This document shows positions 18,001-24,000 of a stretch of DNA of 64,000 nucleotides, piece after piece. This stretch comes from Escherichia coli (GTDB lineage: Bacteria > Pseudomonadota > Gammaproteobacteria > Enterobacterales > Enterobacteriaceae). Every line of letters starts with the position of its first letter. Position 1 is the stretch's first letter. The position numbers are program-made. The stretch lies in NCBI RefSeq assembly GCF_003334335.1, contig NZ_QOWQ01000028.1; one strand, 5' to 3'.

Positions 18001-21000
18001 GCTCGATATAGCTGTATGCCGTGTAATGGGCGGTGACAACCACCACAGTTAACAAATAAATGCTCATCAATGCCGGGCGGCGGAACAATAGCGGGAGGCT
18101 TTTCAGTGAACCGGAATGCTCACTGGGCAGTAAGGGAAGTAACTTAATCAGGCACAAAAGGGTGATAAGCGCCCCAATACCAATCGCGAAGAAGGTCATT
18201 CGCCAACCGAAATACTGGCCCACAATGCGCCCGAGAGGTAAACCTAAGACCATCGCCAGTGCTGTACCGGTGGCAATTAAACTCAATGCCTGTGCTCGCT
18301 TCCCGGCCGGAGCCATACGGATCGCCAGAGACGCCGTAATCGACCAGAAAATCGCATGTGCAAAAGCCACACCAATGCGACTGATCACCAGAACGGTAAA
18401 GCTCCACGACAAAAACGACAGTACGTGGCTGGCAATAAACACCACAAACAGGCAGATCAGTAATTTGCGCCGTTCAACCTGACTGGTCATTAACATAAAA
18501 GGCAATGACATTAGCGCTACTACCCATGCGTAAATGGTCAACATGATGCCGACCTGAGCGGTTTGCATGTGAAAACTTTGCGCAATGTCAGAGAGCAGGC
18601 CAACAGGGACAAATTCGGTGGTGTTGAAGATGAAGGCGGCGACTGCCAGCGTAACGACCCGTAGCCACGCCACTTTGCGGGAAACAGTGTTTGTTGTCAT
18701 AACAGATTATCGGGTGAGTTGCGAAAAAGTGATGAAATGATCTTAAAACGGTTAATGATGTGAATACAATGCATTTGTGATCTGGATCGCGTTTTCCGTT
18801 TCTCTGACGCTGATTCTTTCACGCGTCAGAGAGTCGGTAACATCACGGTTTAATGACGTTCAGGGAGGTCTGGCGTTTTGGCGGTTGCGGGTATAGGTGG
18901 TCTGACAGGGGAGCGAGGCCTGTTTTTCACCAGGTCTTCGTGAGTAACTTTTGGCGGTGTTTCATTTTTTACAAACAGTTTGAGGGTCCTGCGCGCCATA
19001 TGTTTGATAATTTTATCATCACTTAATGATGCTGGCATCAACACGTCATTCAAATCACTTTCATTGGGATTCATAAATTGGTGATAGTGCAATAACATAT
19101 TGGCGAAAAATAAAAACAAGTTCTGAAAATGAGGAGATTCTTGTTCTGCTAAAAGGGATAAAAAGCAGATGCAGACTTCGGGTAGTACATGTTTGTTAGA
19201 ACCTAATGAATCCATCAGGCTTTGCAACAAATCCTCTTTTAATTCGCTGTCCGTTATGTCGAGAATGGCGGTGATCAAGTTAGGATCTTTATTGACGAAC
19301 CATCTGTGAACCTCAGAGTTATTCCATAATCGGGGGAGTATGACAAAATTACCGCGAGAGATAAAATTCAGGACAAGCAAATCAAACTGGCGTAAGTAAT
19401 CTGCAGCGGTATGGTGATCCGAAGGCAGGGGTTCAATATGTGGTGTATGCGCTCTTTTGATGGGAACACCAGGGTTGGTCATTGGAAATTGTTCAATAAA
19501 ATCATTCAGAAACAGAAAGAGTACACGCTCGACGCCGGTCTGAAATACGCGCCCCATAGTGACAGGCTTTGGGTTGGGAGCACAAAAAATATTAATTTCT
19601 CCATCATGGCGAAAATTATCTAAATAAATAGGGCTTAAATTTATTACTACCTGAAATTCAATATTTTCTTTGTGTCTTCCATTCCTGGCGGGATAAGTGA
19701 GTTTAAACTGAACCTTTTCATTGTATAGCGTGTCGTTACCCCGAAAAGAAGTCCTCTGAATATATGATAAATTGTCAAGGTTATTAAATATCTTTTTTGT
19801 GGCTGAGTTGATGTTTAAAGACGTGCGCCACTCTTCATTACATATTATTGTACTAAGTGCATCAATAAAATCCTTTAAAACTTCTTTTACCTGCGGTGCA
19901 ATATTACGTACGGGAAAATCATCAGGAAGAGATATGTAATTGCTGATGCTTACTGGCGTAACCATATTTGCCCCATATAGTCATAAGTCATCGGAACATC
20001 ACTATATAGAGCATATTAACCGCAAGAACTATCAAAAATAGCTCATTGATATCCCTGTCTTGCCGAGTCAGGCACATCCAGCAGTTGAATAAATGCCTCG
20101 AGCGGACGTGTTTTCGCACCACGACGCCAGACCAGCCAGGTTGTTAACCAACGCCATTGCTCAGCTAACGGCCACGCTTCAACCTGGTGATGCCCCGGCA
20201 TACTTTCCAGCATAGAGCGCGGAATAAGCGCAATGCCTGCTCCTGCGATCACACAGGCCAACATTCCGTGATAAGACTCCATCTCATGGATAGTTCCCGG
20301 AGCGGCACCGTCAGCATGAAACCAGCTCTCGAAGTGGCGACGATACGAACAATTGGCGCGGAAGGCATAAATGTTACTGCCATTAACCTGACTGGCACGG
20401 GTTACTGGCGCATATCCTTGTGGCGTGACGATCATCAGTTCCTCGCGGTATACCGGTATCCCGTCGATGGCAGTATGGTTAATGGGTCCATCAATAAACG
20501 CCGCATTCAGTTTTCCCTCCAGTACACCATCCAGCATAGTGCCGGAAGGGCCGGTGGAAAGTGAAAACTGAATTTTGGGATAACGACGGTTGAATTCCGC
20601 CAGCGTGGCTGGAATGCGCACTGCAGCGGTGCTTTCCAGCGAACCAAGAGAAAATAAACCTTGCGGCTCATCGCCAGCGACAACGCTCCGCGCTTCATCC
20701 ACTAACGCGAGAATTTGTTGGCTATAGCGTAAAAAGTTATGCCCGGCAGGAGAGAGACGTAAACGCTGATTCTCGCGAATAAACAGATCAACCCCCAGTT
20801 CTGTTTCCAGCTGGCGCAGACGGGTAGTGAGATTCGACGGCACGCGATGCACTTTTGCTGCAGCCTGGGTTATGCTGCCAGCTTCGGCAACCGCGTTGAA
20901 CATCTCCAGTTGGGTCAGATCCATAGCATTCTCGATTCGTGAATAAGTGGCTTAATATTATTCATTTTAAAGCAAGAGTAAATCTGCGTATCTTCATACC

Positions 21001-24000
21001 ATGACTCATAAAGGAGATACCCCGATGACCATTACTCCGGCAACTCATGCAATTTCCATAAATCCTGCCACGGGTGAACAACTTTCTGTGCTGCCGTGGG
21101 CTGGCGCTGACGATATCGAAAACGCACTTCAGCTGGCGGCAGCAGGCTTTCGCGACTGGCGCGAGACAAATATAGATTATCGTGCTGAAAAACTGCGTGA
21201 TATCGGTAAGGCTCTGCGCGCTCGTAGCGAAGAAATGGCGCAAATGATCACCCGCGAAATGGGCAAACCAATCAACCAGGCGCGCGCTGAAGTGGCGAAA
21301 TCGGCGAATTTGTGTGACTGGTATGCAGAACATGGTCCGGCAATGCTGAAGGCGGAACCTACGCTGGTGGAAAATCAGCAGGCGGTTATTGAGTATCGAC
21401 CGTTGGGGACGATTCTGGCGATTATGCCGTGGAATTTTCCGTTATGGCAGGTGATGCGTGGCGCTGTTCCCATCATTCTTGCAGGTAACGGCTACTTACT
21501 TAAACATGCGCCGAATGTGATGGGCTGTGCACAGCTCATTGCCCAGGTGTTTAAAGATGCGGGTATCCCACAAGGCGTATATGGCTGGCTGAATGCCGAC
21601 AACGACGGTGTCAGTCAGATGATTAAAGACTCGCGCATTGCTGCTGTCACGGTGACCGGAAGTGTTCGTGCGGGAGCGGCTATTGGCGCACAGGCTGGAG
21701 CGGCACTGAAAAAATGCGTACTGGAACTGGGCGGTTCGGATCCGTTTATTGTGCTTAACGATGCCGATCTGGAACTGGCGGTGAAAGCGGCGGTAGCCGG
21801 ACGTTATCAGAATACCGGACAGGTATGTGCAGCGGCAAAACGCTTTATTATCGAAGAGGGAATTGCTTCGGCATTTACCGAACGTTTTGTGGCAGCTGCG
21901 GCAGCCTTGAAAATGGGCGATCCCCGTGACGAAGAGAACGCTCTCGGACCAATGGCTCGTTTTGATTTACGTGATGAGCTGCATCATCAGGTGGAGAAAA
22001 CCCTGGCGCAGGGTGCGCGTTTGTTACTGGGCGGGGAAAAGATGGCTGGGGCAGGTAACTACTATCCGCCAACGGTTCTGGCGAATGTTACCCCAGAAAT
22101 GACCGCGTTTCGGGAAGAAATGTTTGGCCCCGTTGCGGCAATCACCATTGCGAAAGATGCAGAACATGCACTGGAACTGGCTAATGATAGTGAGTTCGGC
22201 CTTTCAGCGACCATTTTTACCACTGACGAAACACAGGCCAGACAGATGGCGGCACGTCTGGAATGCGGTGGGGTGTTTATCAATGGTTATTGTGCCAGCG
22301 ACGCGCGAGTGGCCTTTGGTGGCGTGAAAAAGAGTGGCTTTGGTCGTGAGCTTTCCCATTTCGGCTTACACGAATTCTGTAATATCCAGACGGTGTGGAA
22401 AGACCGGATCTGACGCGACATATTCAGCTCTGATATACTCGCAGGTCTTTTCAGACCTGCGGTCCAGGAGTAGAAAGTGGCAGTCGCCATGGATAATGCA
22501 ATTTTAGAAAACATCTTGCGGCAAGTGCGGCCGCTCATTGGTCAGGGTAAAGTCGCGGATTATATTCCGGCGCTGGCTACAGTAGACGGTTCCCGATTGG
22601 GGATTGCTATCTGTACCGTTGACGGACAGCTTTTTCAGGCCGGAGACGCGCAAGAACGTTTTTCCATTCAGTCTATTTCCAAAGTGCTGAGTCTCGTTGT
22701 CGCCATGCGTCATTACTCCGAAGAGGAAATCTGGCAACGCGTCGGCAAAGATCCGTCTGGATCACCGTTCAATTCCTTAGTGCAACTGGAAATGGAGCAG
22801 GGTATACCGCGTAATCCGTTCATTAATGCCGGTGCGCTGGTGGTCTGCGATATGTTGCAAGGGCGATTAAGCGCACCACGGCAACGTATGCTGGAAGTCG
22901 TGCGCGGCTTAAGCGGTGTGTCTGATATTTCCTACGATACGGTGGTAGCGCGTTCCGAATTTGAACATTCCGCGCGAAATGCGGCTATCGCCTGGCTGAT
23001 GAAGTCGTTTGGCAATTTCCATCATGACGTGACAACCGTTCTGCAAAACTACTTTCATTACTGCGCTCTGAAAATGAGCTGTGTAGAGCTGGCCCGGACG
23101 TTTGTCTTTCTGGCTAATCAGGGGAAAGCTATTCATATTGATGAACCAGTGGTGACGCCAATGCAGGCGCGGCAAATTAACGCGCTGATGGCGACCAGTG
23201 GTATGTACCAGAACGCGGGGGAGTTTGCCTGGCGGGTGGGGCTACCGGCGAAATCTGGCGTTGGTGGCGGTATTGTGGCGATTGTTCCGCATGAAATGGC
23301 CATCGCTGTCTGGAGTCCGGAACTGGATGATGCAGGTAACTCGCTTGCGGGTATTGCCGTCCTTGAACAATTGACGAAACAGTTAGGGCGTTCGGTTTAT
23401 TAATGCAGTCTCTCGATCCACTCTTCGCGCGTTTATCCCGTTCAAAATTTCGCTCTCGCTTTCGTCTGGGCATGAAAGAGCGTCAGTATTGCCTGGAGAA
23501 AGGCGCGCCAGTCATCGAACAACATGCGGCGGATTTTGTCGCTAAACGTCTTGCTCCGGCATTACCGGCTAATGACGGTAAGCAAACCCCCATGCGCGGG
23601 CATCCGGTGTTTATCGCTCAGCACGCCACCGCGACCTGCTGTCGCGGTTGTCTGGCTAAGTGGCATAACATTCCGCAGGGTGTTTCGTTAAGCGAAGAAC
23701 AACAACGTTATATCGTGGCGGTAATCTATCACTGGCTGGTTGTACAGATGAATCAGCCATGAGAATTGCGGAAAACGACAAAATAGCATTCCCAGGGTAC
23801 CTTTATTTGCCGCCGCTGTCAGCGAACATGCTATCTTGGTTCGGTCAGTATTGATAGTCTGGATTTCTGGCCTTTGCTTGCGGACTGGTTCAGTGAGCAA
23901 TTCTCAACGGGCGTGTTGATCGTGCCTTGTATGCTGACGTTGGCTATTCCTGGAGTGCTGCCGCGCTTTAAAGCAGAACAGATGATGCCCGCCATCGCGC

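Follow-up and report, generated by a model that had tools for sequence, protein, structure and literature searches.

The region at 18850-23762 of a 64,000-nucleotide stretch of Escherichia coli DNA (RefSeq assembly GCF_003334335.1, contig NZ_QOWQ01000028.1; hereafter the window) corresponds, with a probability that we put at about 90%, to the known E. coli ptrR/sad-glsB-yneG locus, a module under the control of a LysR-type regulator, and the adjacent gene yneK lies outside this module. The control of a unit linked to γ-aminobutyric acid (GABA) and nitrogen by a LysR-type protein is already published and not new; our central claim thus adds nothing to it, the unit having been described by several groups and its regulator being already named in RefSeq. 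Of the 5426 complete genomes of E. coli compared, 5422 contain the locus.

The regulatory gene ptrR (formerly yneJ; 20043-20924, minus strand) encodes a LysR-type repressor of 293 aa, which RefSeq annotates as “putrescine utilization regulator PtrR.” On the plus strand lie sad (yneI; 21025-22413, 462 aa), which encodes a succinate-semialdehyde dehydrogenase, glsB (yneH; 22477-23403, 308 aa, with a GTG start), which encodes glutaminase B, and yneG (23403-23762, 119 aa), which encodes a DUF4186 protein; the gap between sad and glsB is 63 nt, and an alternative, longer start of sad at 21001 was also present in our list of open reading frames (ORFs). Downstream of ptrR, yneK (18850-19965, minus strand) encodes an orphan protein of 371 aa. 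All five genes were identified from the ORF list and from the RefSeq annotation of a strain that is 100% identical to the window over 18000-25000, as are several sequenced E. coli strains, with additional matches to NCBIfam for sad and glsB and to Pfam for yneG. Every gene coordinate of the initial annotation agreed with both sources. The family matches were computed on the proteins of the window itself. PtrR scored 490 bits against the NCBIfam equivalog NF047711 (cut-off 400, residues 1-282) and contains the Pfam domains HTH_1 (residues 3-62, E = 2.5e-18) and LysR_substrate (residues 85-282, E = 1.2e-45). Sad and GlsB matched their NCBIfam equivalogs over their full length (NF010575, 1031 bits, cut-off 855, residues 1-462, and NF002132, 612 bits, cut-off 381, residues 1-308, respectively).

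The T-N11-A site for which the initial annotation had proposed to search the spacer between ptrR and sad (20925-21024) is present at 20930-20942, inside the palindrome TTCTCGATTCGTGAA (20929-20943). This palindrome is the PtrR recognition site: the oligonucleotide of the published binding assay matches the window exactly here and nowhere else, its 15 bp are identical to the published operator, and it ends 4 nt from the ATG of ptrR. We compared this operator in 80 PtrR-anchored loci, with one genome per species and about 20 enterobacterial genera. The sad gene was divergent from ptrR in all 80, which together with the Pfam and NCBIfam matches confirmed that the former yneJ is a LysR-type gene divergent from sad-glsB-yneG. 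The half-sites TTCAC-N5-GAGAA were recovered at the identical position, each column being conserved in 76-80 of the 80 loci; the strict palindrome was found in just 10, all of them E. coli-like sequences. A second conserved block, TTAATATTATTCA (20952-20964; TGAATAATATTAA in the orientation of ptrR), also has the T-N11-A form and lies 8 nt from the PtrR box, a spacing that is 8 nt in 76 loci and 9 nt in three. This block was conserved more strongly than the PtrR box itself (exact in 64 of the 80 loci, with two mismatches at most in 79) and had no other occurrence in the 689 kb of loci. Its position suggests that it could be a second, activation-site-like contact of the LysR protein and/or the -10 region of ptrR.

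The sigma-70 promoter of sad, TTTAAA-17-TATCTT (20966-20994, plus strand; -35 at 20966-20971, -10 at 20989-20994), has hexamers that were obtained by genomic SELEX (systematic evolution of ligands by exponential enrichment) with RpoD (PMC3946193) and that we placed in the window by reading the sequence. Transcription of sad would start near 21001, and the centers of the PtrR box and of the second block would lie at about -65 and -43 from this start. The arrangement resembles the classical LysR architecture in its divergent target, in the T-N11-A box near -65 and in the second block of T-N11-A shape around -43. The classical architecture has a second site near -35 and autorepression; here the box sits between the ptrR promoter and the ATG. 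PtrR acts mostly as a repressor of its divergent operon, the ligand lifting this repression, whereas most LysR proteins activate in the presence of theirs.

The suggestion of a small GABA- or nitrogen-linked catabolic unit under LysR control matches published chromatin immunoprecipitation (ChIP), binding and derepression experiments, and sad and yneJ are not regulated independently, PtrR controlling sad according to the literature. PtrR was mapped to the ptrR/sad intergenic region by ChIP with exonuclease treatment (ChIP-exo; PMC9068703; bioRxiv 10.1101/2020.04.27.065417; Rodionova et al. 2022), and its site was predicted as TTCtCGATTCGTGAA through phylogenetic footprinting (PMC9068703; bioRxiv 10.1101/2020.04.27.065417). 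Binding was measured by fluorescence polarisation, GABA dissociating PtrR from its site (PMC9068703), and RNA sequencing (RNA-seq) of a ptrR mutant showed the derepression of sad, glsB and yneG (bioRxiv 10.1101/2020.04.27.065417). The occupancy of YneJ was also determined by ChIP with quantitative PCR (ChIP-qPCR), and expression by quantitative reverse-transcription PCR (qRT-PCR; PMC9283627; Gagarinova et al. 2022); sad-glsB-yneG was induced on glutamine, glutamate, putrescine or tryptone (PMC9283627). The E97A substitution in YneJ raised the Sad, GlsB and YneG proteins 10-100 fold (PMC11480449).

According to the mechanism that we favor, PtrR bound at 20929-20943 represses both sad-glsB-yneG and ptrR itself from one site, because this site lies ~65 bp upstream of the probable sad start and directly before the start codon of ptrR. 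The build-up of GABA releases PtrR, and Sad then converts succinate semialdehyde to succinate; these steps have been demonstrated in the literature. The module carries out the last steps of putrescine/GABA catabolism together with the deamidation of glutamine. The locus has the same genes, gene order, operator and divergence as the PtrR regulon of E. coli K-12, ptrR/sad-glsB-yneG(-dgcF) (PMC9068703; PMC9283627), from which it shows no difference in kind. The csiD-lhgO-gabDTP and puu clusters share with it the step from succinate semialdehyde to succinate, gabD of the former encoding a paralogous succinate-semialdehyde dehydrogenase, as well as induction by nitrogen or carbon limitation. Their regulators differ from PtrR (CsiR, sigma-S and Nac for the former, PuuR for the latter) and neither has a glutaminase or a DUF4186 partner.

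The one-base overlap of glsB and yneG that had been reported was readily recognized: in TAATG (23401-23405), the last A of the glsB stop codon TAA (23401-23403) is the first A of the yneG ATG (23403-23405). A T(G/A)ATG junction was recovered in all of the 32 enterobacterial loci in which both gene ends were readable, and glsB and yneG are translationally coupled through this stop/start overlap. The initial annotation treated sad-glsB-yneG as one operon. PtrR co-regulation and the junctions agree with this view: the three genes lie on the same strand, and a consensus scan found no terminator-like site in the sad-glsB and glsB-yneG junctions, although the promoter and terminator consensus scan across the region gave no excess over shuffled sequence. 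The view has to be amended in that glsB-yneG has a conserved promoter-like element of its own.

This internal element, CTGACG-N18-TATACT (22410-22439, plus strand), was among the picks of the consensus scan. Its -35-like hexamer overlaps the stop codon of sad, and a TG at 22431-22432 makes its -10 an extended one (TGnTATACT). The TG-N-TATA-T and AGG motifs were invariant in an alignment of 51 distinct sequences that represent about 20 genera. The same module (CTGACG, an 18-nt spacer, TGnTATACT, a hairpin and AGGAG; 22410-22476 in the window) precedes glsB in every genus compared. In some loci a 1.75-kb gene stands between sad and glsB; the module belongs to glsB because it is still found beside that gene when sad has been split off in this way. 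The RpoD holoenzyme binds the sad-glsB spacer in vitro, where a “yneHG” promoter has been listed (PMC3946193), but the hexamers proposed there are not those favored by conservation here. The unit thus likely has two promoters, PtrR co-regulation notwithstanding, and we regard glsB-yneG as the distal part of the PtrR operon and, at the same time, as a unit of its own with a predicted promoter. This predicted internal promoter would give glsB-yneG a basal expression independent of PtrR.

Between this element and glsB, the glsB-yneG leader can form an RNA hairpin (22439-22462, plus strand) with a 10-bp stem (nine Watson-Crick pairs and one U.G) and a UUUC loop, the AGGAG ribosome-binding site (22466-22470) lying 3' of it. 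The E. coli hairpin has a folding energy of -16.1 kcal/mol alone (z = -6.1) and of -25.7 kcal/mol in context (z = -3.4), the median across genera being -12.1 kcal/mol. In the alignments (51-61 distinct sequences), 83-84% of the cells of the stem were paired, as against 25-46% when the partner strand was slid; in the plain alignment, the 84% of pairing cells compared with 78% in shuffled alignments, and none of 500 shuffles reached it. Compensatory changes were found in five of the ten pairs of the stem, and 25 cells carried double changes, a number also reached by none of the 500 shuffles. A covariance model gave exactly one match per locus, always 5' of glsB, and the refitted alignment produced the same numbers. 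Other results speak against a conserved structure: RNAalifold predicted no consensus hairpin, the stem was weak in 17 of 51 sequences, including the Enterobacter cloacae complex and Raoultella, and the number of pairs with a double change (five, against 3.6 in the shuffles) was matched by 63 of the 500 shuffles. A search of Rfam with 18500-25100 returned nothing credible. We had also considered an outer helix between GCUCU and the glsB ribosome-binding site, which was dropped when the Kosakonia and Phytobacter sequences turned out not to keep the pairing.

Stem-loops at the 5' terminus are known to stabilize bacterial mRNAs, as does the leader of ompA. The glsB hairpin would start only a few nucleotides from the transcription start deduced for the internal promoter and leaves the ribosome-binding site free, as in such stem-loops, although its strength is uneven among genera; it probably stabilizes the 5' end of the mRNA. 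That it is instead a dedicated cis-regulatory RNA (a site for a protein or a small RNA, or a switch responding to a metabolite or to ammonium), which would set the levels of GlsB and YneG post-transcriptionally and independently of PtrR, seems to us unlikely, if conceivable. Still less likely is that the inverted repeat acts as DNA, either as the operator of a dimeric transcription factor or as a partial terminator of sad. The repeat does lie just downstream of the -10 element, a frequent position for repressor sites, and right after the stop codon of sad, and the ChIP signal of YneJ “upstream of glsB” was slightly below threshold (PMC9283627). The sequence of the stem, however, varies among genera while its pairing is preserved, and the G.U found at one pair in 19-25 sequences and the U.G found at another in 43 favor RNA because DNA, or the opposite strand, would have C.A mismatches at these positions. 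A terminator is further opposed by the lack of a T-run after the stem, by the absence of the site from the list of terminator-like sites, and by the fact that the module travels with glsB and not with sad where another gene intervenes.

Whereas sad-glsB-yneG lies within the regulated unit, yneK had been described as standing alongside it. Its position adjacent to yneJ is correct, but the gene is a lineage-specific insertion that is absent from the other genera with ptrR and sad. Among the 80 species loci, yneK was present solely in E. coli and E. albertii; it was missing in four other Escherichia representatives (including E. whittamii), in Salmonella, in Citrobacter and in all other genera. 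In three of these four Escherichia representatives, in Salmonella and in several Citrobacter, ydeA directly follows ptrR. The gene is carried by an AT-rich segment of ~1.3 kb (18797-20075) restricted to E. coli and E. albertii, which holds the variable last 10 codons of ptrR, a 77-nt spacer, yneK and ~53 nt downstream of it: homology to yneK-less species ends after PtrR codon 283 and restarts near 18797. Where ydeA is next to ptrR (the cryptic-clade Escherichia L010-L012, Salmonella and Citrobacter), ~110-255 nt separate the aligned end of ptrR from the start codon of ydeA. The left edge of the segment can be placed only roughly, since the PtrR tail differs from genus to genus and falls outside the NCBIfam model, and a global alignment of the spacer with cheap gaps scattered this boundary. 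The hypothesis that the insertion replaced the C-terminus of PtrR was rejected as unprovable, the tail being different in every genus.

The base composition of yneK (GC content 39.7%, and 39% at third codon positions) contrasts with the 51-53% GC of its neighbors. Between E. coli and the intact E. albertii-type allele, the synonymous divergence (dS) of yneK was 1.14, similar to that of its neighbors (0.64-1.23), so that yneK diverged together with the locus and was not recently exchanged. Its ratio of non-synonymous to synonymous divergence (dN/dS) was 0.17, as against 0.005-0.057 for the neighbors. Judged by these rates, yneK truly codes for a protein and is weakly constrained. It resembles orphan genes in AT-rich DNA acquired by enterobacteria in its low GC content, narrow host range, fast evolution, low expression and frequent loss. 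It differs from them in that it is a lone gene, neither a mobile element nor a tRNA or repeat having been detected at its flanks, and in having co-diverged with its neighbors since the split between E. coli and E. albertii. In the ortholog of a sequence type 131 (ST131) strain, an inverted repeat, CTCTCTGA…TCAGAGAG, was read just 3' of the yneK stop codon, within the inserted segment, at a place that would correspond to 18800-18845 of the window; it is without a T-run, unlike an intrinsic terminator.

Among the 5418 E. coli genomes with any match, 4263 had yneK over at least 80% of its length, and about a fifth of the complete E. coli genomes carry a stub. In ST131-like strains a 102-nt 5' stub is left. 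This corresponds to an internal deletion of ~1 kb (L006 3484-3585, ST131; ~20% of complete genomes), after which the stub reads as a 39-codon ORF and ptrR and ydeA are intact. The 8% megablast matches of the ST131 type, which might have been taken for a hyper-divergent allele, are actually this deletion stub. One strain has an IS3 element inserted within yneK, and the E. albertii type strain NBRC 107761 (L013 4961-6076) has an in-frame stop at codon 86, whereas yneK is intact in the E. albertii-type contigs L002-L004, with a possible N-terminal extension of nine codons. A contig from a human-gut metagenome (L005 179-1294) encodes a YneK protein 84% identical to that of the window (dS 0.58), and the ydeA beside this divergent yneK encodes a protein that is 100% identical (dS 0.205). 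From this comparison, the allelic divergence of yneK in E. coli-like genomes is unusually deep. In the yneK-less Escherichia sp. MOD1-EC7003 (L009 4858-5028), the junction has a ptrR tail of E. coli type (…LDVPD*) and the spacer is 57 nt longer than in other yneK-less Escherichia, which suggests a secondary loss of yneK rather than a primary absence. The yneK segment was probably acquired in the Escherichia lineage, and the gene is undergoing repeated loss. We regard yneK as an accessory orphan gene that has no functional tie to the adjacent PtrR unit.

The transcription of yneK could be thought to contradict this separation. If ptrR and yneK formed an operon, YneK might act in the metabolism of putrescine, GABA or glutamine, or might modulate PtrR. 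The two genes are on the same strand, 77 nt apart, without a terminator-like site between them; the RNA-seq base mean of yneK is 14 (222 for sad) and rises ~7-fold in a ptrR deletion (PMC9068703 Table 5); and SELEX peaks of NtrC and RpoN in the yneJ-yneK spacer hint at nitrogen control (PMC8743547). We nevertheless consider such an operon quite improbable. Every other genus has ptrR-sad(-glsB-yneG) without yneK, yneK has been deleted from roughly one in five complete E. coli genomes that still have intact ptrR and sad, and the base composition and evolutionary rate of yneK are sharply unlike those of the unit. The increase in the deletion strain fits read-through from the ptrR side or the effect of a resistance cassette, the Keio mutant carrying a kanamycin cassette that could explain it. 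In vitro SELEX peaks of several sigma factors and of NtrC fall at the AT-rich start of yneK, and the coincidence of several sigma factors at a single AT-rich place points to unspecific binding. The sigma-54 promoter suggested in the literature upstream of yneK was rejected, no -24/-12 motif with three mismatches or fewer being found in 19966-20042 and matches over the whole window being at chance level. In the laboratory yneK is barely expressed, probably mostly through read-through from ptrR.

Homology searches confirmed the initial statement that YneK contains no recognizable motif, and none of them matched it to a characterized family. The best Pfam hit had E = 0.34 and the best PHROGs hit E = 0.06, sequence and profile searches of the PDB and a search of PADLOC gave no match, and the sole match in NCBIfam was the equivalog defined on YneK itself. 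A word-indexed search of 5.8 billion clusters returned 22 matches, all of them YneK of E. coli, Shigella or E. albertii, and an exhaustive phmmer search of 1.84 billion representatives returned 47, all of them YneK fragments; apparent relatives with 55-66% identity in the latter proved to be the E. coli gene as it appears in noisy assemblies with frameshifts. The AlphaFold2 (AF2) model built from seven sequences was too poor for use (predicted local distance difference test score, pLDDT, 45), and a CorA-like Foldseek hit on it (best E = 0.02, template-modeling score, TM, ~0.1) was discarded as uninformative.

More improbable still than the operon is the proposal that YneK is a relic of a secreted or host-targeted effector, for example of the degenerate E. 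coli type III secretion system 2 (ETT2) or, in E. albertii, of the locus of enterocyte effacement (LEE), and not a housekeeping protein of the cytoplasm. The AT-rich, foreign-looking composition, the restriction to E. coli, Shigella and E. albertii, the N-terminus rich in Ser, Ile and Pro without a signal peptide, and a Pro-rich C-terminal tail that is invariant between both species (RPRSPV.P..P...KTP.L.ERH, with PxxPxR and S/T-P motifs) would fit an effector. Phylogroup B2, in which yneK is deleted, also lacks ETT2. This coincidence, however, is a single phylogenetic event, and the motifs were read by eye; no similarity to effectors, chaperones or secretion components was found in Pfam, PDB, NCBIfam, PADLOC or PHROGs, and there are no secretion genes nearby. 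A weak association of the presence of yneK with the adherence of strains to bovine recto-anal cells failed scrutiny in the study that reported it and may reflect linkage to marB (PMC11540155). The effector idea is thus a lead, not a result. In a different context, the knockout of yneK had no significant effect on the transposition of CRISPR-associated transposons (CAST). Least probable of all is that yneK is a spurious long ORF in acquired AT-rich DNA, as its very low expression, the lack of homologs beyond two species, the pLDDT of 45 and the frequent deletion, IS insertion and nonsense alleles might suggest, since its 371-codon frame is open in E. coli and E. albertii despite a dS of ~1.1 and its dN/dS (0.15-0.17 in three pairwise comparisons, 0.14-0.46 in every 60-codon window) is unexpected for non-coding DNA. 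Our best guess, from these comparisons, is that YneK would be a dispensable, niche-specific accessory protein and not an enzyme or regulator of the PtrR pathway.

Several points weigh against the reading of the locus proposed here. The two main papers on PtrR conflict on its sign and its effector: one describes a repressor released by GABA, whose mutant adapts faster (PMC9068703), and the other, in which Gln, Glu and putrescine were tried as ligands, a mutant unable to use Gln, Glu or putrescine for growth (PMC9283627). The preprint (bioRxiv 10.1101/2020.04.27.065417) labels PtrR a dual activator/repressor. As to yneK, its absence in the cryptic Escherichia clades is open to two readings, loss or independent gain, and its rise in the ptrR deletion may be an artifact of the resistance cassette.

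YneG matches the Pfam family DUF4186 (PF13811) at E = 4e-52 over residues 7-112, a family with no assigned function or solved structure in the databases searched. Its structure is confidently predicted as helical, and the model has no structural neighbor. In an alignment of 27 enterobacterial YneG sequences, Cys30, Cys79, Cys80, Cys83 and several His residues were invariant.

Other observations concern the surroundings of the locus and some of the public records compared. The gene dgcF (yneF; 23835-24821) is called a pseudogene in RefSeq, with its N-terminus missing. The ORF of the window has 315 aa, a TTG start and GGDEF as its only domain match, and the equivalent in E. albertii-type loci (L002-L004, 673-2091) is a 472-aa protein; the comparison of the two indicates that the E. 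coli diguanylate cyclase seems N-terminally truncated. On the other side, marC (16820-17485) is an intact ORF of 221 aa in the window and an N-terminally truncated pseudogene in strain LR-29-1 (L001 1771-1986). This strain is otherwise identical to the window over 18000-25000, and the window therefore comes from a different one. Enterobacterial ptrR-sad loci were also present in public records of a Caldithrix metagenome-assembled genome (L008), whose proteins are 100% identical to those of the window across the compared genes, and of Chryseobacterium sp. 18061 (L047); both labels probably reflect contamination or mislabelling. A locus labelled uncultured Raoultella (L023) is nearly identical to that of Citrobacter braakii (L021).

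In E. coli, whose genome is among the best studied, the evolutionary history of yneK, a decaying, AT-rich insertion of one gene restricted to Escherichia, argues against seeking a role for this gene in putrescine metabolism. The promoter-like element and hairpin proper to glsB-yneG may help to explain the conflicting phenotypes published for ptrR, and the conserved glsB leader is the one feature that possibly deserves a test at the bench. YneG, which is always coupled to glutaminase B in Enterobacteriaceae, would be a reasonable target as a glutaminase partner.

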